From: Isurus oxyrinchus | Taxonomy: Eukaryota | Direction: 5' to 3' | NCBI GenBank assembly: GCA_026770705.1 | Contig: JANJGN010000006.1 | Coordinates: 50,592,001-50,656,000 of the forward strand | Length of the DNA: 64,000 nt | In this document: piece by piece, positions 13,664 to 57,120 of the stretch | How positions within the stretch are numbered: the first letter of the stretch is position 1 | Layout: the number at the start of each line of letters is the position of its first letter | The notes under the pieces: model-generated | Database searches by the model: none | Told to the model about the DNA's origin: nothing | The model's input: the letters and a program-made list of their open reading frames with translations, nothing else | Program-made: the position numbers and the translations under genes

Positions 13664-14754
13664 AGTGAACACAAAAATCACAATCTTCTGACTGAGAAGC
13701 AAATGGGCTCACTCACAACTTTATGGCCCCTTATAGATGTATGCAAAGTAACTGGCAGAAGCGGGAGGGCTATTTTGAAATACACTTATACAGCTAAATT
13801 AATAGAAGCTGGTGTTGACAAGCATTAGAATGGAGCCTTACATTTCACAAGTGGATGGCTGAAAATTATGCAATTTCAGCAATAATCTTCCAGCCATTGA
13901 TCATGGGCTGTGTCTGCAAGATTTGCCAATGTCTCACCAAGTGAAGTTTCATGCTTGGAGCATTCAAGTGGAAAATTGCCCTCAATTCTTGATTTGGAAA
14001 ATTGGGGGCTGAATTTTCATGGGAAACATTTTGGAGTAGTGCCAGGGTAGGGCAAAACATTTACATAAATGCCATTTGTGTCCCATTTTCCAGAGTCAGA
14101 AACAAATGCATGCACCAGCACGTACTCATGGCATTATTAGTGCAAACTGAGATCAGACATGATTAAAGTGCAAGTGAACTTCATTTACATAAGTGTGATA
14201 GGTGTAACAATCATAGTGCACTTGTGCAACCACTTGTGAAATCAAAACTTCTTAATTTTCCTTTCCTTACCACTTCTTCTAAGATCTGCACAACTACCCC
14301 CCCACCAGCCCCCCCGCAACATCCACAGCAGGGGTAGAGGCAGCCTGCTGACTAGTTTGCCCTGTTGTCTTGGGTGGCCTTGGCGTCCTCTGGAGACCTG
14401 TGGCCTAGAGGGCCCCGGCTTACTTTGGTTGACCTATTGTGGGGCAACTGCTCCACCTATGGTCACAGGACGAAGCTGAAGGGGTCACAGTCTAAGGGGA
14501 ATTGGAAGGGCTGGACAGACTCAGAGAGTCCTGAGTGGAGGTCCAAAGCGTGTCCAACTGCCACTCCTCCTCCCTTTGGGTACCAGAGGACATCTGCTTG
14601 AATCCTTGAGGGAAAGGGGCACCTGGAGAGAGGTGGAGATGCCCTGTCCCCCTCTTGCATAGGCACTGCAAAAGCTCACCCATGGCTACAGCAATGGAGG
14701 ACTGGCCTGCTCGCATCACCAGCAGAATCTGCTGGACCAAGTTCTCCATGACAT

Positions 14755-15985
14755 CCACCACATCAACAGGGAGAGGTCTCAGGCCAGGGGTGGGAGTGGC
14801 CCACATTAGGTTCCTCAATCACTTTGAGGAGTGTGCCTTCGCTCTGACTGTTGAGGACATGGACCGTGGCTACGATGACAGTGAAGTCGGCAGCGAACAC
14901 CCTTGTGAGGATCCTGCACCACATCATCCCTCTCTCAATGCAAATATGAGCACTTTCTCTCCTGTTTTTGTCCCCCGCTGCCATGCACTAATTATCACTT
15001 TTTTGGTTCACAGGGAGCTCTGTCAAGTGACTGATACCCTCAGCCAGTCAGTCCCTCAGTTCTATCCATGTCCTTCCCTCCAGCCAAGAGGGCTCCTCCT
15101 CCATTGAACAGCAGGAAATAAGCAGCCTAGAAGACCGGCCACAGCGCTTACCCACATCCTTCACCAGCACAGAGACACACACCTCGGTGGGATCTAGATC
15201 TAGAGCAGACTTGGATTCACAATCTGGTGGTCACCATATAGATGTGTGCCCGCAGCAGGAGAAAGCAGATTCAGCCGAGCTCCCCAGCACTTGGAGAACT
15301 GCTGGGGAGGAGGCATCTGTGAGGCCTGAGTCAGATGATGAATCTCTGGATTCGGCCTTCCAACTCATCTTGGAGAGTCAGCAGAAGGCGGGGTAACATC
15401 ACGCAGAGCTGTTGGAAGCCCTCAACAGAGTGGCATACGAGTTGGAGAATTGTGTTCACTTGCTCTCTGATGAAGTGGTGCCCAATTATGTGCGAATGGA
15501 GGTATCATGGGGAGAATGGCGGACACCATGGAGACCTGGTCCAGCAGAATGCAGAGACGTGTGCAGACCGACACTCCATCGCAGGAGCCATGGGTGAGTT
15601 CCTGCAGTTGTGATGCAAGAGGAAAACGGAGCATCTCAGCATCCCCCAAAATGCTCCTTCTAGGCATCCAAAGGGAGGAGGAACGGCAGCTGGACACCCC
15701 TGGGCCATCCACTCAGGAATCTCAGAAGCTGTCCTATCCCTCCAAGTCCCCTTTGCCTGTGACTCCCTCAACCTCATCCCCTGTCATCGCAAAGGGAGCA
15801 GGTGACCCACAGGAGGACAGCCAGAGCAAGCCAGGGCCCCCAAGGCCTCAGCTCTCCAGAGGACCCATGCCAAATTCATCAGAGGCAACAGGGCCAACCA
15901 TTGCACAGGCTGTTCCACCCCTGCTGCGGATGTCAGAGCAGCACCTTGAAGGAGTGGTAGGTCTAGGAAAGTTAAGAAATTATGA
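14755..15985 (+). pseudogene. Harbinger Myb/SANT-like accessory gene, exons 2-3 remnant
   Basis: NRERSQ../GVAHIRFLNHFEECAFAL exon, gtgag..ttcacag intron (~14905-15012), S/E-rich exon parallel to 45245-46188 (ESDDESL vs ESGSDDVPL; GPPRPQLSRG vs GPSQAPRVRG). Confidence 0.7.
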
Positions 15986-16052
15986 TCACAAATGGTTGCA
16001 AGGCTGAACTCACTTTGTCACTTTATAACTTGAAAATATATTCACTTTCACT

Positions 16053-18844: not shown

Positions 18845-19997
18845 TTTCCGTCCTTAGCTTGCTGCAATGCTCCAGTGAAGCCCAATACAAGCTTGAGGAA
18901 CAGCACCTCATCTTCTGATTAGGCACTTTACAGCCTTCTGGACTCAATAGTGAGTTCAACAACTTCAGACCATGAATTCTGTCCTCCATTGTGATTTTTT
19001 TTCGCCAAGTGCCAATCTATATTTGCTTTCAGACAAATCTGTCCAATTTTCTGCCATTAACACTTACTCTGGACTAATGCTTTGCATCCTTATTATAGCC
19101 ATTACCACTCCCTTTGGCTTTTATTCCATTACATCTTTGATACCGAGGCCAGAAATGTCCACTCGTCTGGGGGTTTGTGTGGGGGCAGGCCGGAGTGAAC
19201 CCGATCGGGTCCGCACCGCCATTTTACATGGGCGGGTCAATTAAGGCCCGCCCATCATGACGCTGAGCGCTCCCTGTGAGGGTGGGGTGGGGATTCCCTG
19301 AGTGGTTCCCTGCGCTGTTTTGTGCATGTGCATGAAAGAGCATAGAGATCTTCCTGAAGCACGGGGGAGACACACTTCCGGGTGTGCATCACAATGTGCT
19401 GGCCTTAATTGGCCCGCCCACATAAAATGACGCGCGGGGACCCGATCGGGGGCTCTAATCGGGTCTGTGCCTGCCCCTGCACAACTCCCCCCAATGGGGG
19501 AAAATTTCTAACCTAGGTATCAAAGATGTAATGGAATAAAAGGCAAAGGGCGTGGTAATGTCTATGGTAAAGATACAAAGCATTAGTCCAGAGTAAGTAT
19601 TAATTGCAGAATAATGGACAGCTCTGTCTGAAAGCAAATATAGATTGCACTGAAAATCTAAATGGCACACGGTGACGTCAGGATGCCTGTCTGACATCAC
19701 CGTACGTCATTCTACATGTCGGCGAGCGGGCCCCAGCAACCCGCACCCCCCCTAACTCGCTGATGGGAAAATGCTGCCCCTAATCTCTCCTGCCCTCACA
19801 ACTATCTTTGACTTTCAATTTTGTTCTACCTGACCCTCCCCCCCTTTTCAGCAGCATTAAACCCATCACATTTTTACCTTTCTGCAGTTCTGAAGAAGAG
19901 TCATGTTGGACTTGATATGTTAACTCTGTTTCTCTCTCCACAGGTGCTGCCAGACCTGCTGAGTTTTTCCATCTATTCCTGTTTTTATTTCTGATTT
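18845..19997 (+). mobile_element. Penelope 3' end (GIY-YIG tail + pLTR) interrupted by MITE and inverted duplication
   Basis: gaggaacagcacctcatcttc..ttcaacaacttcagaccatga, then pLTR resuming at 19780 with hammerhead-like motif and gacctgctgagttttt. Confidence 0.85.
19147..19779. mobile_element. composite Harbinger MITE containing an inverted copy of its left flank
   Basis: MITE motifs ccgccattttacatgggcgggtcaattaaggccc; right TIR gggaaaatgctgccc. Confidence 0.7.
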
Positions 19998-21577: not shown

Positions 21578-21959
21578 GGAGGCAGTGGCACAGTGGTAAT
21601 ATCACTGGACTCATAATCCAGGGGCCTGGGCTAATTCCCTGGTGACATGGGTTCAGATTCTACCATGATAGCTGGTAGAATTTAAATTCAATTAATAAAC
21701 CTGGAATTATTAAGCTGGTCTTAGTAATGGTGACCATGAAACTATCATCAATTGGTGTAAAAACCCACTTGGTTCACTAATGCCCTTTAGGGAAGGTAAT
21801 CTGCTGGTCTTGCCTACATGTGACTCTAGACCCACAGCAATGTGGTTGACTCTTAACTGGCCTCACAAGCCACTCAGTTCAAGGGCAATTAGAGATGACC
21901 AACAAATGCTGGTCTTGCCAGTGATGCCTACATTGCATGAAAGAATAAAGGAAAAAAAA
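21578..21959 (+). mobile_element. tRNA-derived SINE carrying the family-A LINE 3' tail
   Basis: A box tggcacagtgg (21586-21596), B box gggttcagattc (21649-21660), tail aagggcaattagagatg..gaaagaataaaggaaaaaaaa. Confidence 0.9.
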
Positions 21960-22821
21960 TGCTAGTAATTGTCTCATTGGTGTAAACAATCAACAGAACA
22001 AACATTACCCTGGAGAGGAGAGATCTCTGTTTCCCCTTTTTCATTCACATTATTTTTGTTCAAGGCTTTCTCGCAATGTCATAATTTCTTCCTCCTAGTA
22101 TGGTTTCTGAAGCTTATACAACACAAAGGCATTTATCCAATCTGTGCAGTGTTGCTTTTCACACACATATACGCACATAAAAGAAAAAAAAAATCTTTGT
22201 TTTATATAAAAGGACTATAAAGTGTATAATGCTCTTGAAATTTTCCTTCGTTCTTCTTTAAATAATTTTGAAAAACAACCAGGTGACTGCTGCTCAAATT
22301 TAAAGAAAGATGCAGCTAACTGAAGAGTTTTGTTGTGTGTTGGGTGATAGGTACCCTGCAGCTCTGTGGCTGCACAATCCAAATTCAGGTTACAGCGCTA
22401 CACCTCTGAGCAGAAGTCTCAAGTCCTGGACCAAGTTTTGGGACAGGCAGAGACCTACAAGTAAAATTTAACCAAGTCATTACTAGACATAAAATAAATT
22501 CATGCATAAAAGTAATCATGTTGCTGTGAATTTGTGCATTTATTTTATTTTTAAAATTCCATTTAAATCCTTAATTTGGATATTAGAAGTTTCAGTTACT
22601 GAGGAAAAAGTGGCTGACCAAAAATATTCAACTAAAATTTTTCACCAATTATTTTGAGCAATTTGTGGGGAAATGCCACCCAATGGCCAGTTTGGTCAAT
22701 TGAGGGTGATTTCAAATATAAAAACAAAAAAACTGCGGATGCTAGAAATCCAAAACAAAAACAAAAACAGAATTACCTGGAAAAACTCAGCAGGTCTGGC
22801 AGCATCGGCGGAGAAGAAAAG

Positions 22822-22860
22822 AGTTGACGTTTCGAGTCCTCATGACCCTTCGACAGAACT
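22822..22860 (-). ncRNA. minimal hammerhead ribozyme motif in Penelope pLTR (CUGUCGA core variant)
   Basis: AGUU-CUGUCGA-A-GGGUC-AUGAG-GACUC-GAAAC-GUC-AACU; stems I and II pair. Confidence 0.65.
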
Positions 22861-23252
22861 TGAGTTCGAGTCCAAGAAAGAGTTGAAATATAAACTGGTT
22901 TAAGGTGTGTGTGTGGGGGGCGGAGAGAGAGAGAGAGAGAGAGGTGGAGGGGGGGTGGTGTGGTTGTAGGGACAAACAAGCAGTGATAGAAGCAGATCAT
23001 CAAAAGATGTCAACAACAATGGTACAAAAGAACACATAGGTGTTAAAGTTAAAGTTGGTGATATTATCTAAACGAATGTGCTAATTAAGAATGGATGGTA
23101 GGGCACTCAAGGTATAGCTCTAGTGGGGGTGTTTTTTTTAATTTTAAAATATTTAAAAATAATGGAAATAGGTGGGAAAAGGAAAATCTTTATAATTTAT
23201 TGGAAAAAAAAGAAGGGGGAAACAGAAAGGGGGTGGGGATGGGGGAGGGAGC

Positions 23253-24098
23253 TCACGACCTAAAGTTGTTGAATTCAATATTCAGTCCGGAAGGCTGTAA
23301 AGTGCCTAGTCGGAAGATGAGGTGTTGTTCCTCCAGTTTGCGTTGGGCTTCACTGGAACAATGCAGCAAGCCAAGGACAGACATGTGGGCAAGAGAGCAG
23401 GGTGGAGTGTTAAAATGGCAAGCGACAGGGAGGTTTGGGTCATTCTTGCGGACAGACCGCAGGTGTTCTGCAAAGCGGTCGACCAGTTTACGTTTGGTCT
23501 CTCCAATGTAGAGGAGACCACATTGGGAGCAACGAATGCAGTAGACTAAGTTGGGGGAAATGCAAGTGAAATGCTGCTTCACTTGAAAGGAGTGTTTGGG
23601 TCCTTGGACGGTGAGGAGAGAGGAAGTGAAGGGGCAGGTGTTGCATCTTTTGCATGGGCATGGGGTGGTGCCACAGGAGGGGTTTGAGGAGTAGGGGGTG
23701 ATGGAGGAGTGGATCAGGGTGTCCCGGAGGGAGTGGTCCCTACGGAATGCTGATAGGGGGGGTGAAGGGAAGATGTGTTTGGTGGTGGCATCATGCTGGA
23801 GTTAGCGGAAATGGCGGAGGATGATCCTTTGAATGCGGAGGCTGGTGGGGTGATAAGTGAGGACAAGGTGGACCCTATCATGTTTCTGGGAGGGAGGAGA
23901 AGGTGTGAGGGCGGATGCGCGGGAGATGGGCCGGACACGGTTGAGGGCCCTGTCAACGACCATGGGTGGAAAACCTCGGTTAAGGAAGAAGGAGGACATG
24001 TCAGAGGAACTGTTTTTGAAGGTAGCATCATCGGAACAGATGCGACGGAGGCGAAGGAACTGAGAGAATGGGATGGAGTCCTTACAGGAAGCGGGGTG
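23253..24098 (-). pseudogene. Penelope RT thumb + GIY-YIG endonuclease (truncated, in-frame stop at ~23802)
   Basis: SHPASCKDSIPFSQFLRLRRICS; NLVYCIRCSQCGLLYIGETKRKLVDRFAEHLRSV..LEEQHLIFRLGTLQPSGLN. Confidence 0.93.
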
Positions 24099-24253
24099 TG
24101 AGTGCCCTACCATCCATTCTTAATTAGCACATTTGTTTAGATAATATCACCAACTTTAACTTTAACACCTATATGTTCTTTTGTACTATTGTTGTTGACA
24201 TCTTTTGATGATCTGCTTCTATCACTGCTTGTTTGTCCCTGCAACCACACCAC

Positions 24254-24285
<32 letters not shown>

Positions 24286-24347
24286 CGCCCCCCACACACA
24301 CACCTTAAACCAGCTTATATTTCAACTCTTTCTTGGACTCGAACTCA

Positions 24348-24386
24348 AGTTCTGTCGAAGGGTCATGAGGACTCGAAACGTCAACT
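24348..24386 (+). ncRNA. minimal hammerhead ribozyme motif, second (inverted) copy
   Basis: Identical to 22822-22860 in the opposite orientation. Confidence 0.65.
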
Positions 24387-25535
24387 CTTTTCTTCTCCGC
24401 CGATGCTGCCAGACCTGCTGAGATTTTCCTGGTAATTCTGTTTTTGTTTTTGTGAGGGTGATTTCAGCTCATTGGGTCATGCTTAATAGGAAAGTCTTAT
24501 TAAAAATGTGACAGGCATCATAGGAAAGAGGCTGCTATATATGTTATGGGAAGCTTAAATATATTTCAAATGATAAATCTCAGAGTAAGGCTTTTCCATA
24601 GGAGTTGTTGTTTTGAAGGCTCAGCAGATGCCCTGATTTTAACAAATGTAGATTTTCATTTTAGGGGGACTCATTTGTCATGATACTTTAATGTTTCTTT
24701 CTTATTTTATCCTAGTTTGGATTGACTTTTCATATGTATTTCCTTAGTAGTTTAGTCTGTGTTTTATGTTTGTTTGGGGTAAGGGGGCTGGAGAGAGGGA
24801 CAGATTATGGATATGCATCTACTTTCCCTACTTAATGAGTGGAGAAGGTGTTAATATCTTTGGGCCTGGGAAGATATATGTTTACAAATTGCCCAAAAGC
24901 GAGGTTATAAATTGTGTGTTTGCAAGCATCTATTTTCTCCTTTTTCATTATATTAAACCTCGAGACTTCACTTCTGTATTCAAAAAGTTAGAAAATCTAA
25001 TAAATGTAATCATTTGGTTAAAGGGAAGGTGGATCAGAGATTGAGATTTATTTACCACTCCCTAAATTGTGTCAGAGTAATGGGTTTTTAATCTAATGGC
25101 TGGCTCCTCTGTTAACTCATTTTATTGGGCCTGGATTTAAGAAGCTTACACTGAAGCTCATCTCTCTGATCTCTCATCTGTCAGAACAAATAACAATTTT
25201 CATCTGCTTTCACCAGACGAGCCTCATAACTGTCTTGGATTTCATAGGGTGCAAACATTAAGAAATCAAGGAGACACCAAGACAAACAGCGTTGGTAGTT
25301 TATGGAAAAGAATGGCTTTGAGGCCAAAACCAAGTTAAAACATTTAAAAAGGAAGAGATGTACGTTTGTGCAGTGTCTTATCATGTCTCTTGAAAGTTAA
25401 CCAAAGTGCTTCAGATGCAATGAATTATGTGAAATGTGGTAACTGCTGTCATATAAATGAAATAACAGTTACTTTGCACATAACTGGATCCTACTAAGAA
25501 TAATGAGATGATTGAGAAGGCAATGTCTCTGGGGA

Positions 25536-26606
25536 ACAAAAACAAAAATAGCTGGAAAAGCTCAGCAGGTCTGACAGCATCTGTGGAGAGGAACGCAGTC
25601 AACATTTCGAGTCTGTATGACTGTTCATCAGAACTAAGGAAATATAGAAATGAGGGGAAATATAAGCTGGTTGAGGTGGGGGAGGGGGGGGTGTGACAGG
25701 TAAAGCTGGATAGAGGGCCAGTGATAGATGGAGGCAAAGAAGAGATTGCCAAAGGTGTCACAGACAAAAGGACAAAGGGGTGTTGACAGTGGTGATATTA
25801 TCTAAGGAATGTGCTCATGGGGACATTAAGGGTAGGAAGCAGGACAAGCAAGTGACTGATGGCCCTAGTGGGGGTGGGGCGGGGGGAAGGGATCGAAATG
25901 GGCTAAAAGGTGGAGATAAAATGATAGATTGAAATTAATTTAAAAATAGGTGGAAAAAGAAAAATATATTTAAAAAATTATAAATTATTGGAAAAAGGGG
26001 GTTCGGAAAGGGGGTGGGGATGGAGGAGCGAGTTCATGATCTGAAGTTGTTGAACTCACCATTCAGTCCAGAAGGTTGTAAAGCGCCTAGTCGGGAGATG
26101 AGGTGCTGTTCCTCCAGTTTGTGTTGAACTTCACTGGAACATTGCAGCAGGCCAAGGACGGACATGTGGGCATGAGAGCAGGCTGGTGTGTTGAAATGGC
26201 AAGCAACAGGGAGGTCTGGGTCATGTTTGCAGACAGACCAAAGGACCGAAGGTGACCAAACACCTCCAGTCTGTCCTGCTTCCTACCCTTAATGTCCCCA
26301 TGAGCACATTGCTTAGATAATATCACCACAGTCAATACCCTTTTCTCCTTTTGTCTGTGACATCTTTGGCAACTCTTCTTTGCCTCCATCTATCACTGGC
26401 CCTCTATCCAGCTCTACCTGTCCCACCCCCCTCAACCAGCTTATATTTCACCTCATTTCTTATTTCCTTAGTTCTGATGAAGAGTCATATGGACTCGAAA
26501 TGTTAACTCTGTTCCTCTCCACAAATGCTGTCAGACCTGCTGAGCTTTTCCAGCTATTTTTGTTTTTGTTTCAGATTTCTAGCATCCAGTATTTTGCTTT
26601 TATCTT
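25536..26606 (-). mobile_element. Penelope fragment with inverted pLTR and ~14-bp TSD
   Basis: pLTR + GIY-YIG tail minus 25536-26245, pLTR plus ~26270-26606; TSD aatgtctctgggga (25522-25535) / aacggctctgggga (26607-26620). Confidence 0.9.
26470..26508 (+). ncRNA. minimal hammerhead ribozyme motif with canonical CUGAUGA core
   Basis: agtt-CTGATGA-a-gagtc-atatg-gactc-GAAA-tgtt-aact; mirror copy at 25597-25635 (minus). Confidence 0.65.
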
Positions 26607-30990: not shown

Positions 30991-32227
30991 GAGATGTGTG
31001 TAAATGCTGCTGAAGACCTCAGTCAACACATCAATTGTTTCAGCCAATGCATGTTAAATTCTTAGACAACCAAAACACTGTTATTTACATATATAATAAC
31101 TTGTACAAAGACACCTTTTGTTAACTAATCTTAAAAATGGACAGACAACTTCATCCTCGTTCCTCCAGAAGGTGCCATGCATATGAAATGAATAGTTCAA
31201 ACGATGCAATTAAAATCTTGCACCTACAAAATGTACAAGCAAATAAATAGTGGCATTATATGACTTGTCCAAGGTTTGATAACAGTTAAATTAGTACTGG
31301 TGTCACGTTCAATTATGTCTGCAAGGATAAGGCCCCATTAGTATTATTTTGCAGGTTCAGTTACCAATAGCAATCATGATGTTTCATTGGTACAGTGATT
31401 GAATGTGACACCAGCAAGTTTCACTTTACATATATTCTTAAATTTGGAAATATGTCTTCATTGTTTCAGAGCTGTTGTTGAAGTAATTGGAAGTTCAGTG
31501 TTATTTAAGATTATTTAATCAGGCTGACCTTATATTTGTATTACCTTTGTGTTTAGCTTAAATAATAAATCACACAGCTAATGACTCGTTCATGTTTTGC
31601 TTTGGTGAAGTGAATCTAGGAGAAAGCCACAGCAGTGGGAAACCCTGGGACTTGTCCCTTGAAATAAATCACAAAAAATTACTGACCTGATAAAATCCAG
31701 TTAACTATCTTAACAGGTAAGATGCATAAGTCATCTAGGAATGCTGTTCAGATCTGAATTTTGTTCAGTTAAGATGTAACATTGGTTGGATGGTAAAAAA
31801 GGCACCTACAGCTGTCAATGATTAAGCAGCTTACCACTCATCTATGCAGTTTGACCTTCAATCAGATTGCTGTAAATTGGCTAATCCGTTTTCTTCTGAG
31901 CTAACTACAAAGTACTGCATTTCTTTTGTACAATTGCCAGGAACAAACATGCTTTTCATTATGTAACAAGTGAAGATGGCACTCAGTAGATTGAATACCT
32001 CTGCCACGCTGTGTTAACTCACCACTTTTACAATTACGCAATTCTCCCTTGAGGTTTTTCCCTGTCTGGTTGATGCTCTGTAACTGCAAAGCTGAAAAAA
32101 GAAATATTTTTATTAAGAGCTTCCATCTCACTGAGGAGGCTTCAGGCCAATCCACATCCAACAAACTGCTCTGAAAACTCTGCTCACCAAAACAACACTA
32201 TTCTAAATAAAATAATACACAGCAGAA

Positions 32228-35200
32228 GGAGGCGATGGCATTATGGTAATGTTACTGGACTAGTAATCCCTGAGGACCTGAATCTGAATCCCACCATGGG
32301 AACTAAAGAAATTGAATTCAATAAAAATCTGCAACTAAGAGCCTAATGATGACCATAAAACCATTATTGATTGTTGTAAAAACCCATCTGGTTCACCAAT
32401 GTCCTTTAGGGATGGAAATCTGCCATCCTTACTAGGTCAGGCTTACATGTGACTCCAGACCCAGAGCAATGTGGTTGACTCTTAACTGCCCTCTGAAATG
32501 GCCTAGTGAGCCACGCAGTTGTATAAAACCACTAAAAAGCCATAAGAAATGGGCATTGAACTAGGCACTGGAAACAACAATGACACACCTAGCCTTGTTG
32601 ATCATGCAAAGTCCTCCTCAATAATATCTGGGGGCTAGTGCCAAAATTGGGAGGGCTGTCTCACAGGCTAGTCAAGCAACAGCCTGACATAGTCATCTTC
32701 ACGGAATCATACATTAGAGATCATGTCCCAGACGCCATCATCACCATCCCTGGGTATGTCCTGTCTCACTGGCAGAGGTGGCAGCACAGTAGTGTAAAAT
32801 CAGCAGGGAGTTTCCCTGGGGATCCAATTCACTGACTCTTGACCCCATGAAGTCTCGTGGCACCAGGTCAAACATGGGCAAGGAAACCTCCTGCTAAATC
32901 CACCGTGTTGTGTGGCACTACCAATGTATTAAATGAGATAGATTTTGAACATATCTAACAACTCAAGACTGGGCATCCATGAGGGACAGTGGCCATCAGC
33001 AGCAGCAGAATTGTAATTTGTAACCTCATGGCCTAGCATATCCCCCGCTCTACCATTACCACCAAAACAGGGGATCAACCTGGTTCAATGAAGAGTGCAG
33101 GAAGGCATGTCAGGAGCAGCACCAGGCATACCCAAAAATGAGGTGTCAACCTGGTGAAGCTATAACACAGGACTACTTGTGTGCCAAACAGCATAAGCAG
33201 CAAGTGATAGACAGAGCTAAGTGATCCTACAACCAATGGATCAGATCTAAGCTCTGCAGTCCTGTCACATCCAGTCGTGAATGGTGGTGGACAATTAAAC
33301 AACTCACTAGAAGAGAAGGATGTTCCACAAATACCCTCATCCTCAATGGTGTGGGAACACAGCACAGCAATGCAAAAGATAAGGCTGAATCATTTGCTAC
33401 AATCTTCAGCCAAAATTGCCGAGCGGATGATCCATGTCAGCCTCTTCCGGAGGTCCCCAATATCACACTTGTCAGTCTTCAGCCAATTCAATTCAGTCCA
33501 CGTGATATCAAGAAATGGCTGAAGGCACCAAATTCTGCAAAGGCTATGGGCCCTGACAATATTCTGGCAATAGTACTGAAGACTTGTGTTCCAGAACTTG
33601 CCATGCCCCTAGCCAAGCTGTCCTAGTACAGCTAAAATACTGGCATCTACCCAGCTTTGTGGAAAATTGCCTTGGTGTGTCCTGTACACAAAAAGCAGGA
33701 CAAATCCAACTTGACTAATTACCGCCCTACTAATCTATTCTCGATAACCAGTAAAGTAATGGAAGGAGTCATCAACAGTGCTGTCAGTGGCACGTGCTTA
33801 GCAGTAATCTGCTCACTGATGATCACTTTGGGTTCTGCCAGGGCCACTCAGCTCCATTTTAAGTGGGCAGGCCAATTAAGGCCCACCCAGTGTGACGTCC
33901 GCACAGAAGCACTTTGCGCTTTCTGTGCGGGTGGGGGGTGGGGGGGGGGGGGGGGGGGATATCCCAAAATCAAGAGTGCGTTCTTTCGCGAATGTGCACA
34001 AAAGAGCGCACTCATCTCCCTGAGGCTAAGTGCTGCCTCAGGGAGATCAGCTGTAAATGTAAAAAAGATAAAAATAGAAAAATAAAATTTCCCTAACATG
34101 TCCCCTCATGTCATAATGTCACTTGAGTTGGGACATGTCCATAATTTTTATAAAACCTTTATTAAAATTTTTTAAATCCAACATGAAACTTCATCCTGCC
34201 CGTGGATGAGGTTTCATGTTTTTTCTAGTTCCCGCCGGGGTTCCTGGCCTGTCCGCCAACCTTAAGGTTGGACGGGCAGGTCCTTTAATTATTTAATTGA
34301 CCCTGTCAGTGGCCTCAATTGGCCATTGACAGGTCGGTGGACCTGCAGCTGATTTCGCTACACCTCCGCCTTTCTGAAAATTTAAATGGGGCACAGTTTC
34401 CGGAGTTCCCTCGACTTCACCGCACGTTATTTTACTCGTCGGTGAGCGGGCCCTGCCCCTACTCACTGACGCATAAAATCCTGCCTCTTGTCTATATGCA
34501 GCAAGACCTGGACAATAAAAAGGCTTGAGCAAGTAACATTTGCCCCACACATGTGCCAGGCAATGACCATCTCCAACAAGAGAGAATCTAGCATCGCCTC
34601 TTGACATTCAATGACATTGCCATCACTGAATTCCCCACCATCAACATCCTGGGGGTTACCATTTACCGGAAACTGAAATGGACCAGCCATATAAATGGCT
34701 ACAAGTACAGGTCAGAGGCCAGGAATCCTGCAGCGAGTAACTCACCTCCTGACTCCCCAAAGTCTGTTCACCATCTACAAGGCACAAGTCAGGAGTGTGA
34801 TGGAATATTACCCACTTGCCTGGATGAGTGCAACTCCAAAAACACTCAAGAAACTTGACACCATCCAGGACAAAATAGTTCACTTGATTGGCACCACATC
34901 CACCACCTTAAACATCCACACCCTCCACTACCAAAGCAGAGTGGCAGCAGTGAGTACCATCTGCAAGATGCACCACAGGAACACACCAAGGCTCCAACAA
35001 GGCTCCTTCAACAGCACCTTCCAAACCCACGACCACTACCATCTAGAAAGACAAGGGCAGCAGATAGATAGAAACACCACCACCTGGAAGTTCTCCTCAA
35101 AACCACTCACCAGCCTGATTTGGAAATATATTGTTGTTCTTTCGCTGTCACTGGGCCAAAATCCTGGAACTCCCTCCCTAACAGCACTGTGGATATAGCT

Positions 35201-35323
35201 ACACCACATGGACTGCAGTGGTTCAAGAAGGTAGCTCACCACCACCTTCTCGAGGGCAATTAGGGATGGGCAATAAATGCTGGCTTAGCCAGTGATGCAC
35301 ACATCCTATGAATGAATGAAAAA
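32228..35323 (+). mobile_element. family-A LINE with tRNA-SINE-like 5' head, EN and RT remnants, 3' tail; internally deleted
   Basis: 32228-32520 colinear with SINE 21578-21879; then LSHRLVKQQPDIVIFTESYI (EN), KAMGPDNI, WKIALVCPVHKKQDKSNLTNYRP, YKAQVRSVMEY; tail ..gggcaataaatgctggc..atgaatgaatgaaaaa. Confidence 0.9.
33855..34486. mobile_element. Harbinger MITE (left end lost) within LINE
   Basis: Colinear with 52805-53491; right TIR aaaatcctgcc. Confidence 0.88.
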
Positions 35324-35864
35324 GCTTTCTAAAAAAGTCAATTAATCCTATCTTCAAGAATCAATGAGCCCTTTAAAACATTCCAGGATCCAGATCTGGG
35401 TCTGCATCTTTGCCAAAAACTAATCCGTTCTTCGTTGAGCCATACCATACCTGTGTACTGGATTTCATTGAAATCTGTCCATTAGTTTTTGAGATATATT
35501 GTTTACAGATACCTTCAGTGGTGGAGCTAATGAAACAAAATAATTGCAGGGAGAATAATTTTTATTTGCGAGTATCCAATACCATGAAGGGGAATTTGAA
35601 TGGTTCATAACCACTGGTGGAAACTTCCAGATGAGGTTACAGGAATGAATGCAGATTTTCCAATTAGGCATCAACCTGACTGGATTTTAGGAATAGTGTG
35701 AATCACATCCACTGAACATACTTAATTGATGGACAAACTCAGTTGTGGGAAAAAAACCCTTTCATTCGAACATTTCTCACAGTTGGGGGGTGGTATGAGA
35801 TGATAAAAGGACGTCTAGCTTTAGGAATCAAAAGCTTATAGTAGCCTAAAGGAACAGGCATCCA

Positions 35865-41399: not shown

Positions 41400-41933
41400 G
41401 GGCAGAAATTTTTGCCCAGCAGGCAGGCGCATGCCCGTCCTGCCGAGCATGCCGATGTCAATGTGCAGTCATGTGATAGTTCTGCTGGCGGGCGTGCGCC
41501 AGAGCCGGCAGTGTGCCCGCCGACAATTAAAAGGCCTGTTAAGGCCATTAAGTAATCAATTCAATTCAAATTTTCGCTGCCTGTCCAACCTAACAGCAGG
41601 CAAAAAGGCCAAGCGGCCTTTGCATTTTTTGGGAACCTAATCCACAGTCGGGAAGAGGTTGCAAAAGCAAATAAAAGTAAAACAAAAACTTTAATTTTTC
41701 ATTAATCACATATCCCTGCTCATGTGACAGAGTCACATGAGGGTACATGTTTCATTATATTATTTTTTAAACTTTATATCTCTTCATCTCTCTGAGGTGT
41801 TTAATGCTGGGTGGGCCTTAATTGGCTCGCCAATGTGAAATCGCGGTCCGGTGCTAATTGAAGCAGCAGTCAGCTTGCTCTCCGCCCCCACCCACCACCG
41901 CCAAGCACCCTCGCTAAGGACAAAGTTCTGCCC
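41400..41933. mobile_element. Harbinger MITE in Gypsy integrase
   Basis: TIRs gggcagaaatttt / aaagttctgccc; imperfect TSD caa/cag; host reads RLHL|VFPNL across it. Confidence 0.88.
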
Positions 41934-43693: not shown

Positions 43694-44925
43694 TATGTGT
43701 TCTGAGATCTCCACTAGAGGCAGCTCCTCTGAGGAGGAAGGGAGGGATAGAATAATGAGGAGGCCAGGACTGGACAATCAGCCTCCAGGGGAGCCACCTT
43801 TGGGAGGCCAGGTGCAGGCACAAGGGGCACAGGGCAAGAGGTTGTCCAAGGTGGAAGGGGCCTCAGAAGACGCCACTATCCTGCTGCCAGGGTATACAGG
43901 CAGCAAAGCAGCTACCTCAATATGACTGAGGTGTAGTGCCTGTCGGAGTCGGAGCCTGTCAAGGGAAACAATGAACTATATCAGTCAGCTGATTGGCCCT
44001 GAGATCTACCCTAACTGTGTAGGTGGACACCCCATGCCAGTGGCTCTGAAAGTCACAATTGCCCTCCACTTCTATGCCTCTGGCTTTTTCCAGGGCTCGG
44101 TAGGTGATCTTTGGGGTGTCTCCCAATCAGCTGTCCACACTTGTGTCAAGCAGGTTACAGACGGTCTGTTCAGAAGGGCATTAACCTTCATCCATTTCCA
44201 CTGCGACCAGGCAAGTCAGGCACAGCGAACCAGAGGCTTTGCGGTCATTGCTGGCTTCCCCCGCGTCCAAGGTGCAATAGACTATAAACATGTGGCCATC
44301 AATGCGCCAGCGGGTGAGCCCGGTGCCTTTGTCAACAGGAAGGGCTTCCACTCCATGAACGTGCAGATAGTGTGTGATCACAAGATGCTGATTCCACAAG
44401 TCTGTGCAAGGTACCCAGGCAGCTCCCACAACGCCTACATCCTCAGACACTCCCAGGTGCCGGCGCTCTTCAGTGCTCCGGCTCGGCTGGATGGATGGCT
44501 GCTGGGTGACAAGGGCTATCCCCTCAGAAGATGGATCATGACACCTCTCCGCCATCCAAGAACAGAAGCTGAGCAGCGGTACAATAGGAGTCATGGCACC
44601 ACAAGGGCTGTGGTGGAGAGAGCCATCGGTCTTCTCAAGATGCGCTCCTGTTGCCTGGACTGCTCACGGGGCGCAGTACCCCCCAGATCGTGTCTCTGTG
44701 ATAGTGGTAGTCTGCTGCGCCCTGCACAATCTTGTGCTGGAAAGGGAGGATGCAGTTGACAATGAAGAGCTTGACACAGTGGATGAGGCTGCGCATGATG
44801 AATCCAGCAGTGCCTCAGAGGATGAGGAAGCACAGGGCGATGATGAGGGGCAGCATGCCGACCCAGTATTACATCAAGGAGGCAGAGACACCCGGGACAA
44901 TTTAATCCAGTGAACATTCAGCTCG
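43694..44925 (+). pseudogene. Harbinger DDE transposase (HARBI1-like family), disrupted
   Basis: ALHFYASGFFQ, GFPRVQGAIDYKHV, FVNRKGFHSMNVQIVCD, YPGSSHNAYI, WLLGDKGYP, VVERAIGLLK, CCALHN; frameshifts and HD->HN change. Confidence 0.93.
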
Positions 44926-45244
44926 CTCCACACAATGGATCAGCACGACCAGCATTGCCTGACGCTTCCATATGTGTCACTTAGGTGCTACATCTTCCAC
45001 CTCATCAGCTGCAACTAAGGGCTTAGTACAGAAACATCAATGTCCACTCAAACACTCATGATATGTCTGTGAAATATACAAATGCAGCACAAAGGAAACA
45101 CCCTCAGCCATGCTCAGAAAAGTGGACTTTATTCTCACCAAAATAAAACACAAACATCGTTCAGATGTACATAATTATATTTTCCCTAATCTAGGGCTAA
45201 CACAAAATCACCAGCGACAAACCCATGGAGTACCTAACATGCCT

Positions 45245-48200
45245 TATGCTTACATTTGTGGGTGCTACGTCTAGGTGCCGCCCCATCGCTCGGAATGGTT
45301 GTGAGACAGCCTGCTGACTCTGCTGTCCTGTTGGCCTCGATGACCTTGGCGGGCGTCCTCTGACCCGTGGAGCCTGTGATGGTCCCGCCGGGGAGGGAGT
45401 GGCCAGTTCCAGAACTGGCACCTCCCCAGTTGTCGCAGCCTCAACGGATGCAACAGTTACTGGCAGAGGCTCAGAGGAGCTGCTGCCCTCATCCGGAGCG
45501 CCCTTAGAGGAGCTTGCAGCGAAGACAGGGAGCTGCTGCGCCGATGTGAGGTCACATTGGACCTCCCTGTTCTCCACAGATCGATGGGCACTGAATGGTG
45601 ACACTTGGTGCCCAGAACATCTCCCACATTGGGAATGACCACCTGTGGCCATTAGCGCTGTGAGGGCTTGCCGGTCAGAGCGTAACCCAATCAGAAGAGT
45701 CTCAATCCACTGGAAGCCCGTTTCCATGAGAGTCACCAATCTCTCAGTGGAGGAAGCTGGAAGCTCTGTCCTGAGGTTCATGCCATCACTGACACTCTGC
45801 CTGGATTCCTCCACCACAGAGACCAAGTGAAGCACACCCTCATGCAACCCTGCCAGATGCTCCCGCGCACCATGCCAATTGTCCTGCAGCTACTGCATGG
45901 CTAACATCTCCAGAGGCACATCATCACTGCCGGACTCAGCATGTGCCTGGTCCCCTGCAGTCCTCCGGCTGCTGGCACCATCGGCACTCTCTGTCCGTGC
46001 CGTCTCCTCCAGTGATTGCGAAGTGCCCTCTCCACTGTGCCCCAGGACACCAGCCGACATTATATTCCCCAACAAAGTGTTTGTCGCTGCGCTGGTGCCT
46101 CGCTCGCTGAAAGAATGTGATGCAAGTTGCAAGTCTTGGCCCTCAGGTTTGGGGAGAGGGATCTGGACGTGGCCATGTGGTGTTGATGCTGAAATTAACA
46201 ACAAGGACAGTGCATCAGTTAGCGTTCAGTCAGTAACACCTTTCATCCCTTAACCCCCCAGCCTCATAAGTCGCTCACGCTTCAAGAACCTAAGGAGACG
46301 AACATTGGTGGGGTGGTAAATGATCAAGAGGAGGCCCAAACATTACACACTCATACAGACTGGCTGGTCAGATGGCCTAAGGAATGCCACATGGAATGTT
46401 ATGTAGATAAGTGTTCAGTTAAGCACTTGGGCAAGGGAAGCAAGGTATGGGAATATATGAGTAATGGTAGGACCGTGGGAAGTCACGACAATTACAGGGA
46501 TCTTGCTGGGCAGACCTGTTAAGCTAGCAGAACAGGAACATAAGGTATTTAACAAAGTCGAAGCCAGACTTGCCTTTATTAGCCAAGGAATAGAATGTAG
46601 GAAAAGGGAGGTCATGTTGTAAGTGCAGAAAACGCTGTCGTTCAGTTGTGACCTGTGCTTCATGGGAGGAATGACATTGGAGTGGGGAGAGTGCAGAGGT
46701 TCCTGACCTGGTTGCATGCTGGCCTGGAGAGTTGGAGTTATGAGGAAACATCGCAAACACTTGCGACATTTGCAGTGGAGCACAGGAGATTGACAGGTCA
46801 CATTATTGACCTTCATATCGTTAGGAGGGGCATAGAACAGGTGGACAGAAGGCAACACTTCTCCTTGGCACAGGGATGACTAATGTGGTGGCATTTGTTT
46901 AAGTTGAGCGCCATAAGATTCATAGCTGAGGTGCTGAGGACCTTTTGGACAGAGTAATGTGGGACGCACTGGATGAAAGGGTGGTGGAGGTACAAACCCT
47001 CCTAAGATGGAATAAGTCTTTGGCTGTGCAGCAGTGATGCCATGGCATGTTAGGCCATGGGGATGGTGGTCAGAAATGGGATAAGGTGACTTTGGAAGGT
47101 GCTAGAGACGCGCATCCTCTAGGGGCCGAGGGACCTTTGTGTATGACCCACACATCTGACTGTATCAATCTGTGAATGAGCAGTGTTGCTGCATTAACGA
47201 TTGCAGCAACCATCAGTGCTTTGGATGGTGGGGAGACAGATTGGATGGGACTGTGACCCTCAAATACCTGGCCATTGCACCCCAGTCTCACCAACACCTG
47301 CTGACCTGGCTGCCTGTCTCCTCCTCAGCTCCATGGCCTGCTCCTCATACATGGTGAGGTACTGCAGCACGGCGTGCCCACCACCAGTCAGCTGCCACTC
47401 TCAGATATTGCTGTCAGTTATTGCCTGCAGAATAAAGAAGAGCATTTATTGGGGCTGATCGCTCATGTACTCTGCACGCGCACGCCGCACCCCAACCACA
47501 GTGGCCCATCTGAGGCCTCCAGCGGCTCCTGTCCACACTACTGGTGTTCAGTCCCCAGAAGATAGTACGGTTGCTCCCAAACCCCTCCCCCAATGGTCAC
47601 CTTAGACACATTCGGCGTCCATCACTTTGAATAACACAAGGGTCTTAGCGCCCATGGCAAGGAGGCGCAACTAGGTGTGGTGCTGAGGCCAGCAGATGGC
47701 TTTTGGATATGATAGCTTTGAGTCTCCCCTTCCATCATCTCATCACCATCAATAAGACATGTGTTGGAGTTCTGAGTATGTGTCTAGCTGCCTCCCCTGC
47801 AGGTTGCCCCCAGACTACTCAAATGCAACAAACACCAACATATGCTGCAGGAAGAGCCCATCTTCTCCTCAACCACTAAGGCTGATGTAAGTATGGTCAC
47901 TCTCTGTTTGCCCACCCAGCGTGCGCCAAATGCCCAAAGCAGTAATGACACCAAGTCGCGGTGGGGGGGCCTCAAAGGCTAAGGCTACCTGCTGGTAAAA
48001 TAGCCAAGGCTGACATGGTACTCACCCTTCCAGAGCGCAGCAAATCATTGAAGTGCTTGGGGCACTGTGTTCCTGTGCACTGCACAGCATCTTGAGAGCT
48101 TACAGCCTTCGCCATCTCCTGCCACGCCTGCCTGGTCATGTGGGGGGCTCTCCTCCTCCCATCCTCCGGAAACAAGACCTCCCGATGGTTGGACACCTTT

Positions 48201-48331
48201 TCCAGGAGAACAACAAGGCAGGCATCGGAGAACTGAGGGGCACAGTGGCCCCCCGCTGGCCTACCCTGCAGACTGCCCCCCTCCTCCTCTGCCCTCACAT
48301 CCTGTGGTGCCTGGTTGCTGGCCATGGTCAA
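45245..48331 (-). pseudogene. Harbinger Myb/SANT-like DNA-binding gene, three exons (48331-48026, 47424-47268, 46188-~45245)
   Basis: APQFSDACLVVLLEKV..QAWQEMAKAVS..TQCPKHFNDL|gtgagt; exon 2 EWQLTGGG..LTMYEEQAMEL; GT-AG sites with consistent phases; in-frame stops. Confidence 0.85.
46290..47150 (+). mobile_element. highly diverged CR1 RT/3' fragment inside intron 2 of the Myb/SANT gene
   Basis: TNIGGVVNDQEEAQTLH..DWLVRW..CHME..DKCSVKHLG..YRDL; gttatgagga, aggagattgacaggt, gggccgagggacct. Confidence 0.75.
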
Positions 48332-50933
48332 CAGCCTAAAGGAGGCTGCCTGGCCGTTCTCGATACGGACTGCCAGTTCCCCATTGGAACCGATGGTCTG
48401 AACACTCCCGCTGCTGATTTAATTTTCCCGATGAACACGGGAGTCTGAAACACACTGGGCAGGCCTTAATTGGCCCGCCCGCGCAAAATGGCGGCGGGTT
48501 TCAGTGGCGGCAATCAGCCGCCTGCCCGCCCGACAAACACAATATTCAGCCCATTAATGGTTTACGGTCTGACACAATGGTGAAATAGCGACCATGCAGG
48601 AACTGGTGGAATTCCTTCACCCCGAATACCACCGATAAACCTTCCTTTTCTAGCTGGGAATAACCTTTCTCGGTTGTGGAGAGGGTTCTCGAGACATAGC
48701 CAATGGGCCTTTCAGACCCATTTTTCATTTTATGGGATAGCACAGCTCCCACTCCATAGGGAGAGGCATCGCATGTTAATACCATCCCCCTTTCAATGGG
48801 TCATAGTGTACCAATAGACACGACAAATGCTTTCATGAAGGCTTCTTCCTGTTGTAGCCCCCAAAGCCAACAGTGGTTCTTTATTAGGAACGAGTATAAC
48901 AGTGCCAACACAGTTGATAGGTTTGGTAAACATTCAGGCTTAATTACTGGAACTGTGGGTGCAGACAATTCTGAAAATTGGACTGGTTGGATTATGCCCA
49001 GCTTTTCCAACTGGTGCAGCTCCTCATCAACCTTTCCTTTCAATGTATAAGGCACAGGTCTTGCCTTAAAGAAGCAAGGTGTCACCTGTGACTCCACATG
49101 TATCTGGGCCTGCATGCCTTTTAATTTGCCTAGTTCATCCTGAAAAATCATATTGTATATTCCTTGAAGTTCTGGAAATCCATCAGATTTGAGGTGAAAT
49201 ACCTCAGACCAGTTGAGCTTGGTTTTCTGTAACCAGCCTTGGCCTAAAAGACTGAGTCCTTCTCCTTTCACAATTATAACAGGCAGCTGGGCTGTCTGTT
49301 GCTTGTAGGAAAGCAATACTATGGCGATGTTCTTTATCTGAATGGATTCTCCAGTGTATGTCTTTAATTCTAGCACATGCTTATAGTCAATGTTGACCTC
49401 AGCAAGTAAAAGGCGCTGTTTGGCGTCATCCCGAACTCCACAAACTGACTGGTCCCGCAGCATATTTAATGTGTCCCCAAAGTTGCAATGTTCTGTTAAC
49501 TGCTTGAGGCTCACTACATAGGTTGCAATGGATTCTCCCGGGGCACTAATTATGGAATTAAATTTAAAACGCTGCATTATTATGGATGGCTTCAGTGGGA
49601 AGGGTGTTTTTACGAGGTCCACTAATTCATTATAGGACTTAGAATTGGGCACGCTCAGGGCCACCATGTTGCGAATGAGGTTGTATGTTTTACTGCCACA
49701 TACACTCAAAGAGATGGCTTTCCTCTGTGGTAATCTTGTTCGATACGAAATAAAGACCAAGGCGCTCTACATTACTGGCTCTAGTCTTCCATAGATGCAC
49801 CATATGGATCGATTCTGCTGAAGAGTAGCATGACTGGTGAGTAGTCTTTTTTTCTTAAAATTCAATGTACTCACAGTAGCCGGGTAAGGCACAGAGTCGG
49901 AATTAATTATACCCTCATCGCCAAATGTAATGACTCGACATAGCGGACAGGTTTCAACAAGAAACAGCCAAACTTTATTACAGAGAGCTTTTCAGGTGCT
50001 ACACACTTGATCAGGACTCTCGTCAGGAAGCCCCACACCCCAGATCTCCCACACTTAGGGCTCATTGGTCAGAGCCTTAACAGAACATCACGTGACCCCT
50101 AATAGACAGCAGGACGGGCTATACCCTCAGTTACCACAGACTTCTACTTAGCATCCGAACTACAGAGAGCCCTGTTACATATGACACAAGAGTTATCATG
50201 CATTCCATGGCAGACTGCAGTGCAGACAATTGTTCATCAATAGATGTACAGATACAGCTAGTGAATTTCATTTTACTATTCACCAAACCTAGCATTATAT
50301 AAATGCACATCATCTATACAAGTGCCTTGCATAGACAACCCTTCTCAGACAATAGTCACTGTCTGTAAGCAGGCCCTGTAATGTCAGAACCTTTAGATGC
50401 TGCAGCACAAACAAAAGCTGTGTTGGGTTTCTGGCCTTCAGTAACCTCCTCACCTATTCAACGTTATTCACACTGTGCGACTTCTTTCAACCCAGTGAGT
50501 CACATCCTCTGCTGTACGTTAGATATATTGCTGCTTTGAAGAAGTGATGGTGATCCAAGGTGTGGTGATGTGTGCAGCTTGACTCTGTTCTTCATTTTCT
50601 GAGAAAATAGAAGTAAACAAAAGCCAAAATGCTACCCCATGTAAACAACTTTATCGATTCCATTTGATGAGGTCCTCTGTGATGTTACAGAAATTGGATG
50701 TATGCCGGTGTGGTAGTCACCCAACAGGACAACACTATATGATGCTATGATATCAATTCAGAGGCTGCCTCTGGCTTCACCATCTCCTGCTTCTTGACAA
50801 TTTTCCAACCTTTGTTTTCCATGGTAGTCTCCCTGCAAACAGCCAGAGCTTAAAGTATTTTGGGATCCATTTTTGGGAGGCCATTTCTGTTAATTATGTG
50901 AAAGCTTGCGCTGCAAGCAGATATTGAGGTTAT

Positions 50934-51553
50934 GGGCTGAATTTTACCCCCGTTGGGGGGTTGGGGGGGGGGGGGGGGTGTTGTGTGCGGGTGGGCAGGA
51001 GCGAAGGCGAACCTGATTGAGCATGCACCGCCATTTTACGTGGGCAAGCCAATTAAGGCCCACCCAGCGTGACGCTCGCCCAGAAGCACTGAGCACACCC
51101 TGTGCGGGCAGGGGGAGGAGGCTGAGTGCGAGCTTGCGCTCCTTCGCACATGCGCGTGAAAGAGTGCAGAAATCTCCCTGAGATAACAGAGCTGCCTCAG
51201 GGAGATTCGTTTAATGTTCAAGCAGTTAAAGAAAGAATTGAAAATATTTTTAAGACATGTCCCCTCATGTGACAGTGTCACATGAGCTGGGACATGTCAA
51301 AGAACATTAATGTAAAGAATTATTTAATTTATAAACATTTCATGAAATCTCATTCCACCTGTGGATGATGTTCCATGAAACACGCGAAGGCCGCCTGGGC
51401 TCTTCGCCTGCTCACCAACCTTAAGGTTGGACGGGCAGCTCCTTTAATTAATTTAATAAGTTTTAAACAGACCTTAATAGGCCTTTGACAGTTTGGCCGT
51501 CATCACGCGTCATTTTACAGGCCGTTGGGCTCGCTAACCGGAAAATTCTCCCC
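50934..51553. mobile_element. Harbinger MITE
   Basis: TIRs gggctgaattttac / gaaaattctccc; internal hairpins shared with 52805-53491. Confidence 0.88.
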
Positions 51554-52804: not shown

Positions 52805-53491
52805 GGGCAGAACTTTCCACCTGTCGGGGGGAGAAGTTGATGGGCGGGTGCATGCGGGCGCACTTCCAATCGGTGCCCCCGATCGGAAGCGTGGCGCCTT
52901 TTATGTGGGCAGGTCAATTAAGGCCTGCCCAGCGTGACGTCCACAGGGAAGCACTATGCGCTCCCAATGCGGGCAGGGGGAATCCCTAAAATTGAGAGTG
53001 GGCTCTTTCACGCATGCGCATGAAAAAGCACATTCATCTCCCTGAGGCTAAGTGTAGCGTCAGGGAGATCGGCTCTATGTGTAAAAAAGATAAAAGTAGA
53101 AAAATAAAATTTCCCTTACATGTCATGAGGTGGGACATGTCAATAATTTTTACATAATCTTTATTAAAAATTTTTAAAGTCAACATGAAACCTCATCCCG
53201 CCTGTGGATGAGGTTTCATGATTTTTCTAGTTGCCGCGGAGGCTCCTGGCCTGGCAGCCAACCTTAAGGTTGGATGGGCAGGTCCTTTAATTACTTAATT
53301 GATCCCATCAATGGCCTCAATTGGCCATTGACAAGTCGGTGGGTCCACAGCTCATTTTGCTGCACTCCCGCCTTCCTGAAAATTTAAATCAGGCACGGTG
53401 ACGTCGGGAGTTCCCCCCAACGTCACCTTGCATTATTTTACGCGTTGGTGAGCGGGCCCTGCCCCCACTCGCCGATGGTAAAATCCTGCCC
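52805..53491. mobile_element. complete Harbinger MITE with AAG TSD
   Basis: aag|gggcagaacttt ... aaaatcctgccc|aag. Confidence 0.93.
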
Positions 53492-56159: not shown

Positions 56160-57120
56160 TGTGTACCTATCTGACAATGTAGAAAACAGCCAGGATATGC
56201 CCTATCCACAAAAAAAAAGCACATCTAGCCCAGCCTATTACTGACCAATAAGACTTTTCTTGGTGAGCAATAAACTGAGGGAAGGTGCCATTAATACTTT
56301 TTTTTAATTCATTCACGGGATGTGGGCTTCGCTGGCTGGGCCAGCATTTATTGCTCATCCCCAGTTGCCCTTGAGAAGGTGGTGGTAAGCTGCGTTCTTG
56401 AACTGCTGCAGTCCATGTGGTGTAGGTATGCCTACAGTGCTATTAGGGAGGGAGTTCCAGGGTTTTGACCCAGCGAAAGTGAAGTAACGGCGATATATTT
56501 CCATGTTAGGATGGTGAGTGACTTGGAAGGGAACTTCCAGGTGGTGGTGTTCCCATGTGTCTGTTGCCCTTGTCCTATTGGTGTCATACCTACTGTAAAA
56601 GAAGATGGTTGTAGTTGTCAGAGACCAGCCATCATAGTTCCAGAACATTGTTGCAGGAGTTACTCAGAGAAACAACCTTGGTCTACTCATCTTCAGCTAA
56701 CTCATCAATTACCTTTCTACTGCCATATGGTCAAGGCTGGGGCTATCTGCCGATGATTCCACAATGTTTAATTCCATTCACCACATCTCCAGTAATGAAG
56801 TAGCCCATGCTATGCTACAGCAGAGCTTGGATCATACGCAGGTGTGGGTTGACAAATGCTTAGCAACATTTATACCATAAAACTACCAAGTAATGACTAT
56901 ATCGAACAAGAGGAAGGTTAGTCACTTGCCTTTGACCTTTAATAGCACATCATTGCTGGTTCTCCAGCTATCAACATCTTGACCAGAAGGTGGACTGATT
57001 CAAGCATATCAACAACATGGCCACAAAACTACACAGAGGCTGGATACCCTTTAATGAATCAATCACCAGCTGACACTTCAAAGCCTGTCCACCATTCACA
57101 AGGTTTGAATCAAGACTGTG
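56160..57120. mobile_element. degraded LINE fragments including a family-A tail (minus, 56298-56580)
   Basis: Tail motif reverse complement; cagcagagcttggatcatacgcaggtgtgggttgacaaatg resembles the RT thumb. Confidence 0.65.

Follow-up and report, generated by a model that had tools for sequence, protein, structure and literature searches.

In the window, meaning the whole stretch of 64,000 nucleotides of Isurus oxyrinchus DNA analysed here, the LINE at 32228-35323 is by its sequence a copy of the Zenon LINE (CR1 group) of elasmobranchs, decayed but reaching from end to end, and it begins with a tRNA-like head. LINEs are generally taken as Pol II elements, and SINEs as a small-RNA head added to a LINE tail. 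Judging from the published consensus sequences, however, the junction between head and endonuclease is a family trait and no chance adjacency. As the LINE itself bears the head throughout the family, a SINE can arise from it by deletion alone, which reverses the usual order. This head-on-LINE architecture is real, extends over the family and seems to have gone unnoticed before; no description of a tRNA head on a shark Zenon was found in the open-access literature. We give about even chances to the further reading that the head acts as a Pol III promoter for an RNA of ~3.3 kb and that the free SINE of the window came from a sister subfamily by deletion. If true, Zenon would be a LINE that is simultaneously a SINE and that makes up as much as ~7% of the genome in some sharks, and with a working promoter its 3.3-kb coding Pol III transcript would test both the translation of uncapped RNA and why Pol III products stay short.

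The identity of the element is based on exact window motifs of 13-23 nt, which match only elasmobranch Zenon rows in the supplement of Stuart et al. 2026 (PMC13343379; leading 400 nt per sequence), the classification as Zenon itself resting on the reverse transcriptase tree of that study. An L2/Crack/Daphne identity was discarded after the Zenon survey and the supplement matches. As far as described there, the elasmobranch Zenon consensus equals the window copy in head, body, junction, spacer, single ORF, lack of ORF1, A tail and a length of about 3.3 kb, with the difference that the published elements are consensus sequences and the window copy is a decayed member. Among named proteins, those most similar come from gene models of whale shark, Heptranchias and Heterodontus. 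As in Zenon generally, a single APE + RT frame without ORF1 was found, with the head running straight into the endonuclease; an RVT_1 match was obtained on the sister copy at 3921-4412. The 3' end is of the poly-A type: short A runs close seven LINE tails and the SINE (nine aligned rows), and A-rich loose ends lie beyond 35317-35323 in the sequencing-run contigs. No intact shark ORF was recovered, as an endonuclease profile run among proteins of at least 295 aa gave three matches, all of them fragments inside other gene models. A 23-nt head motif had no match in metagenome, viral or prokaryote contigs.

Because the window LINE is a Zenon copy, its missing ORF1 is ordinary. The sequence-only reading had regarded this absence as unusual, but ORF1 is absent from all Zenon elements in the published survey (PMC13343379), so that its lack is the known norm for the surveyed family and not new. 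The same reading had called this family the most abundant LINE in the window. This is plausible at ~6.3 kb over 12 stretches of our own listing, SINE counted in; over whole genomes, however, the share of CR1 is much larger, with 15-23% in five elasmobranchs against 0.7-6.8% for Zenon in the figures given (PMC13343379). The latter annotation likely confuses the SINE with its LINE.

The window copy is old and heavily decayed, with many stops and frameshifts, and is without ~0.8 kb comprising part of the endonuclease and the RT core (Table 1). Between 32228-32520 of the LINE and 21578-21878 of the SINE, 212 of 270 aligned columns are identical (78.5%, global alignment), with a score of 219 compared to -34 for the best of 500 shuffles. 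Both heads share their very first base (GGAGGC), and a 19-nt deletion distinguishes the LINE head (32228..32299) from that of the SINE. This bears out the colinearity claimed earlier for 32228-32520 and 21578-21879, and the fork at its end was likewise as described. In the SINE, CAGTT (21875-21879) is followed directly by CAAGGG, which corresponds to the LINE tail from 35251 (79% identity over 71 nt), while the LINE continues for ~90 nt, slightly less than the ~110 bp estimated before, and enters the APE endonuclease at 32611. The proposed lack of room for an ORF1 also held, as neither strand has an ORF of at least 100 aa between 30748 and 33075. Spacer position 32595 was covered by 112, 115, 28 and 6 contigs in four sequencing runs. 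Within the 5' part of the decayed ORF an internal deletion lies near 32897, and Pfam gave no match on the two tested pieces of 32611..33853; the protein P0008, to which this part aligns, has Pfam endonuclease and RVT_1 domains. The earlier reading had seen no target site duplication (TSD) here; none was found adjoining either the LINE copy or the free SINE, and a candidate matching 9 of 10 nt was rejected, since 17 nt separate it from the head downstream. The window's remaining stretches of this family all stop short of the 5' end.

Table 1 Features of the window LINE copy and of the free SINE (window positions).
Feature	Position	Strand	Remark
tRNA-like 5' head of LINE	32228..32299	+	same start and layout in 7/7 published elasmobranch Zenon 5' ends
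A-box remnant of LINE head	32236-32246	+	
Anticodon-like arm of LINE head	32255-32269	+	
Decayed B box of LINE head	about 32280-32292	+	
Head body common to LINE and SINE	32300..32520	+	ends at junction CAGTT 32516-32520; white shark/catshark/stingray subtype
LINE-specific spacer	32521..32610	+	spanned by whale shark gene models
5' part of the decayed single ORF, with APE endonuclease start, linker, reverse transcriptase start	32611..33853	+	tblastn to P0008
Inserted repeat, unrelated to LINE	33854..34485	.	at the site of the missing RT core
Decayed ORF, 3' part	34489..35263	+	stop TAG 35261-35263
3' tail common to LINE and SINE: last codons, 3' UTR, short A run	35251..35323	+	
Free SINE, head and body	21578..21879	+	A box 21586-21596, B box about 21650-21661
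Tail of free SINE, derived from Zenon, with A run	21880..21959	+	adjoins head, nothing between

Seven elasmobranch Zenon consensus sequences are published (PMC13343379), from white shark, whale shark, catshark, stingray and, three times, dogfish (CarCar_Zenon-1, RhiTyp_Zenon-1, ScyCan_Zenon-1, HypSab_Zenon-1 and SquAca_Zenon-1, -2 and -3). In the first 400 nt of each, all seven from these five species start with the head and contain the LINE-type junction CAGTTGTA, whereas the SINE joint occurs in none; in the stingray and one dogfish consensus the endonuclease start also falls within this range. The longest genomic insertions about equal the consensus length, e.g., 3299 versus 3288 nt in white shark, and the legible cells of the published table give 0-3 intact ORFs per 59 to 2,313 Zenon elements (PMC13343379). 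Three Zenons of hagfish and coelacanth begin differently and lack the head (by eye). Because all seven elasmobranch Zenons start with the head and those of hagfish and coelacanth do not, a single gain of the head in the elasmobranch line, prior to the divergence of sharks and rays, is likely. Three of the five whale shark-type gene models with upstream sequence (P0002, P0165 and P0166) moreover carry head-derived residues upstream of the endonuclease; the matching segments are short, and in P0166 splicing or a deletion may be involved. Hence, the junction reaches beyond a single locus, and the full-length relatives start with the head and not with a conventional 5' UTR and ORF1. In the main text of Stuart et al., the words tRNA, promoter, polymerase and Pol III do not occur and SINE occurs once, in a reference title, so that neither the head nor the partner SINE is commented on (PMC13343379). 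The whale shark genome preprint, in the part available, merely names CR1-Zenon (10.1101/443036). In four further automatic models of unrelated shark genes (P0009, P0169, P0170 and P0171), LINE pieces appear as exons, which are likely annotation errors.

In both window elements the A box begins 8 nt from the 5' end, and the seven elasmobranch consensus sequences start 5-10 nt before it; across the shark and ray consensus sequences the boxes are recognisable (both by eye). An A-box/B-box pair at tRNA spacing was matched once in the window, in the SINE, compared to 0 matches in 100 shuffles, a chance figure that is optimistic, as the B-box part of the pattern was loosened after the SINE copy had been viewed. 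The canonical B-box 12-mer GGTTCGAATCCC occurs in 3 of 1,003 visible 5' ends of vertebrate CR1-group elements, all three being shark Zenons, and five variants of it in none of the 1,003. Among the seven elasmobranch consensus sequences the B box is canonical in three and departs in four. The Rfam tRNA model gave no match on the window LINE head and 14.4 bits (E 4.8) on the SINE, under the cut-off of 29; the copies are about 20% diverged. ARAGORN called neither window head a tRNA, and folding yielded a cloverleaf in neither. In the LINE copy the loop can be read as an AGT anticodon, which would be that of a threonine tRNA. The SINE (21578-21959) further has a LINE-derived tail and is multi-copy, with the joint present in four of four runs.

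We also compared 80 metagenome loci with 35-43% RT identity among the matches listed, which are not established as Zenon. The strict A+B pattern occurred upstream of none of the 46 distant-relative ORFs of at least 800 aa. A loose pattern, which also misses the window LINE head, was present in 6 of the 32 loci with 300 nt upstream compared to 3.5 expected. ARAGORN gave 0/80 at default settings and only noise at a lowered threshold. For heads in distant relatives this amounts to a weak negative. One CR1-group ORF from a metagenome contig (L028 54-2790; 912 codons, 5' end cut off) has no sense T4 run where 5.6 are expected.

Runs of four T on the sense strand would act as Pol III terminators, and a non-redundant Zenon set of 2,796 nt contains a single one, which overlaps the premature stop at 32943-32948. 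The strictest control, dinucleotide shuffling, predicts 3.3 and is not significant (P 0.13), while mononucleotide shuffles give P 0.014. Other window elements have 21 in 5,303 nt (P 0.001; element labels and borders are ours), and 15 low-T CR1-group ORFs, chosen from the 46 related metagenome ORFs, predict 7.3 (P 0.006). One of these 46 ORFs, which have no known head, is also free of T4. Pooled Zenon fragments contain three runs in 5,881 nt compared to 8.6 expected (P 0.016), a comparison that is not independent, as paralogous tails are counted repeatedly; of the three, the first falls beyond the aligned element, the second is missing in two aligned paralogues and the third overlaps a premature stop. 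In the first 400 nt, T4 is absent from all seven elasmobranch consensus sequences and present in all three other vertebrate Zenons (by eye). The scarcity of T4 in headed Zenon sequences thus fits Pol III transcription and is suggestive of it, not proof.

Whether Pol III would transcribe the LINE from its head is, on these sequence features, evenly poised. It is also quite possible, if somewhat short of an even chance, that the LINE truly starts with the head but that its RNA is a Pol II product, arising by read-through or from a promoter within the body. The A and B boxes would then serve the SINE only, or the tRNA-like fold would mark a 5' processing site, like the ribozymes in some LINEs. 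This is countered by the 5' ends, which in all seven consensus sequences lie where a tRNA-type start predicts, by boxes that are recognisable in sharks and a ray, and by the scarcity of T4 against three kinds of control, the strictest of which leaves it at P 0.13.

Translation must start in a non-standard way under any model, as judged from the reading frames. After the stop at 32494 there is no ATG in the endonuclease frame. The ATG at 32549 opens a frame of 29 codons (32549-32638, stop 32636) which runs, in another frame, into the start of the endonuclease, and a similar ATG is present in six of the seven elasmobranch consensus sequences (by eye). The spacer before this ATG varies in length across species, while the ATG itself seems conserved. 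Pol III transcripts are normally uncapped, and the uncapped RNAs of ribozyme-bearing LINE clades are translated. Ribozymes are known in some LINE clades (PMC5786205), and Pol III transcripts are normally short, with 100-700 bp given for SINEs (PMC10886601).

Taken with a Pol III origin of the RNA, the following course of events may be proposed. The elasmobranch Zenon almost certainly has one APE-RT frame, no ORF1, an A-rich tail and, in the sharks and one ray covered, a head fixed at its 5' end. An ancestral Zenon would have taken this head from an earlier tRNA-derived SINE or from a tRNA-like RNA by template switching, before the split of sharks and rays. With the A and B boxes inside the transcript, each full-length copy would bring its own promoter, and its sense strand would avoid T4 terminators; for this step the odds appear balanced. 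The uncapped RNA would be translated via a non-standard start, because no in-frame AUG precedes the endonuclease. Loss of everything between head and tail would then, with good probability, leave a SINE equipped from the outset with a promoter and with a tail for RT recognition. The scheme as a whole, an autonomous coding LINE transcribed by Pol III end to end from a captured tRNA promoter, translated free of cap and in-frame AUG, kept in sharks and rays and giving rise to a SINE by one deletion, is put forward tentatively, as somewhat less than an even bet.

The origin of the SINE can be addressed with more confidence. Its head-to-tail joint occurs in all four of the public sequencing runs that were aligned to 32080-35379, covering three organisms. 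In each run the joints lead from about 32485-32520 to 35253, the one from 32520 to 35253 being carried by at least 8, 12, 7 and 2 contigs. As each run had less than half of the query words, these joints represent other copies, likely from other species. A contig piece bridging head and endonuclease was not among the 32 pieces listed of about 615,600. Between head and tail the SINE has no SINE-only sequence. Because nothing specific to the SINE lies at the joint, it is quite probably an internal-deletion derivative of Zenon, and the earlier suggestion of such a form is the best reading of a head-to-tail joint that lacks the intervening sequence. Derivation from the subfamily of the window LINE does not agree with the head subtypes. 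The free SINE shows dogfish-type diagnostics, including an extra 9-nt block, and its diagnostic motifs match dogfish LINE heads only, whereas those of the window LINE match the heads of white shark, catshark and stingray (consensus 5' 400 nt). Because these motifs match the heads of different species, either a sister subfamily gave rise to the SINE or heads were exchanged; on these diagnostics, the former is likely.

In the reverse direction, a SINE with tRNA head, body and Zenon tail would have come first, and the LINE would have received its head from it, possibly repeatedly. SINEs do commonly acquire Zenon tails, as reported in part of the literature on bivalves and butterflies, and the match of the window SINE head to dogfish LINE heads and not to the neighbouring LINE copy could reflect such an exchange from SINE to LINE. 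However, the end of the shared head coincides exactly with the beginning of the tail, a boundary that deletion gives automatically and donation only by coincidence, as a template switch onto SINE RNA need not hit the border of body and tail; Zenon is, moreover, already known to give deletion forms, of which Persaeus is described (PMC6740152). We therefore consider this order improbable. A SINE inserted by chance beside a 5'-truncated LINE at one locus only, to which the missing TSD and the lack of other window stretches reaching the 5' end would be agreeable, is already refuted by head and junction in seven consensus sequences from five species and in the whale shark gene models, and its probability is close to nil.

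Deletion of a headed Zenon, as preferred here, has a close counterpart in the Zenon/Persaeus SIDE of Lepidoptera (Wang et al. 2019, PMC6740152), which likewise pairs an ORF1-less Zenon of ~3.3 kb with an abundant derivative made of its 5' and 3' ends. According to the portion of that account used here, Persaeus, like the window SINE, retains the ORF end and the 3' UTR, but is without homology to tRNA, 5S or 7SL and without a Pol III promoter, whereas the window SINE has A and B boxes; the microhomology at the break-point is 5 bp in Persaeus and about one base in the window SINE (PMC6740152). Of the properties that define a SIDE, the window SINE has both ends homologous to its partner LINE, but it does not lack a head derived from small RNA. 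It is, in other words, a SIDE in origin and a SINE in anatomy.

Bipartite SINEs, with a tRNA head followed by the 5' UTR and 3' UTR of RTE or Vingi (Kojima 2018, PMC5786205), also share a 5' part and the tail with a LINE. As described there, however, the tRNA head is on the SINE alone and only RTE and Vingi contribute, while in elasmobranchs the Zenon LINE carries the head. The same source states that RTE-1_DAn and related elements contain tRNA-like sequence, so that such DNA has a precedent in an autonomous LINE. Small-RNA-derived Pol III promoters are also described for the non-SINE retroelements Cassandra, Helenus and Ajax (TRIMp3; Kojima 2024, PMC10886601), which, unlike Zenon, are LTR elements that do not code for protein and do not exceed about 1.3 kb. 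The chondrichthyan SINEs HE1, SacSINE1 and CmiSINE have tRNA-derived heads too (PMC3747384, PMC5499810). By their descriptions they are set apart through tails of HER1, CR1-4_DR-like and CR1-2_CM or L2-2_CM origin, with only the tail shared (PMC3747384, PMC5499810). Other SINEs or tail-only partnerships are the subject of PMC3747384, PMC5499810, PMC6685494, PMC11481361 and PMC4824008, in the parts consulted. Membership in the MetaSINEs was not supported, since four body and tail motifs had no match among the bivalve sequences of the PMC4824008 supplement and no Meta-like block (a 66-bp Meta-domain after a tRNA(Thr)-like head) was seen by eye in the window SINE.

Several further repeats were noted in the window. 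The Zenon copy at 56301-56961 and beyond has its tail on the minus strand and an RT part on the plus strand, and thus looks like a 5' inversion. At 2910-4984 lie two or three minus-strand Zenon fragments, nested or adjacent, of which 3921-4412 has the RT core that is absent from the main copy. The repeat at 33854-34485 belongs to an abundant, non-coding type of ~630 bp with several internal hairpins, with copies also at 51031-51457 and 52899-53490 and partial ones at 19169-19733, 41576-41750 and 48451-48491. The ORFs at 43926-44913 and 45197-48418 resemble a Harbinger-type transposase and its Myb-like partner, and similar pieces occur at 14492-16007. We take 22755-24453, 25534-26570 and 54804-55985 to be Penelope-like elements; within the first, 22755-23109 and 24099-24453 form inverted repeats that are 96.6% identical.
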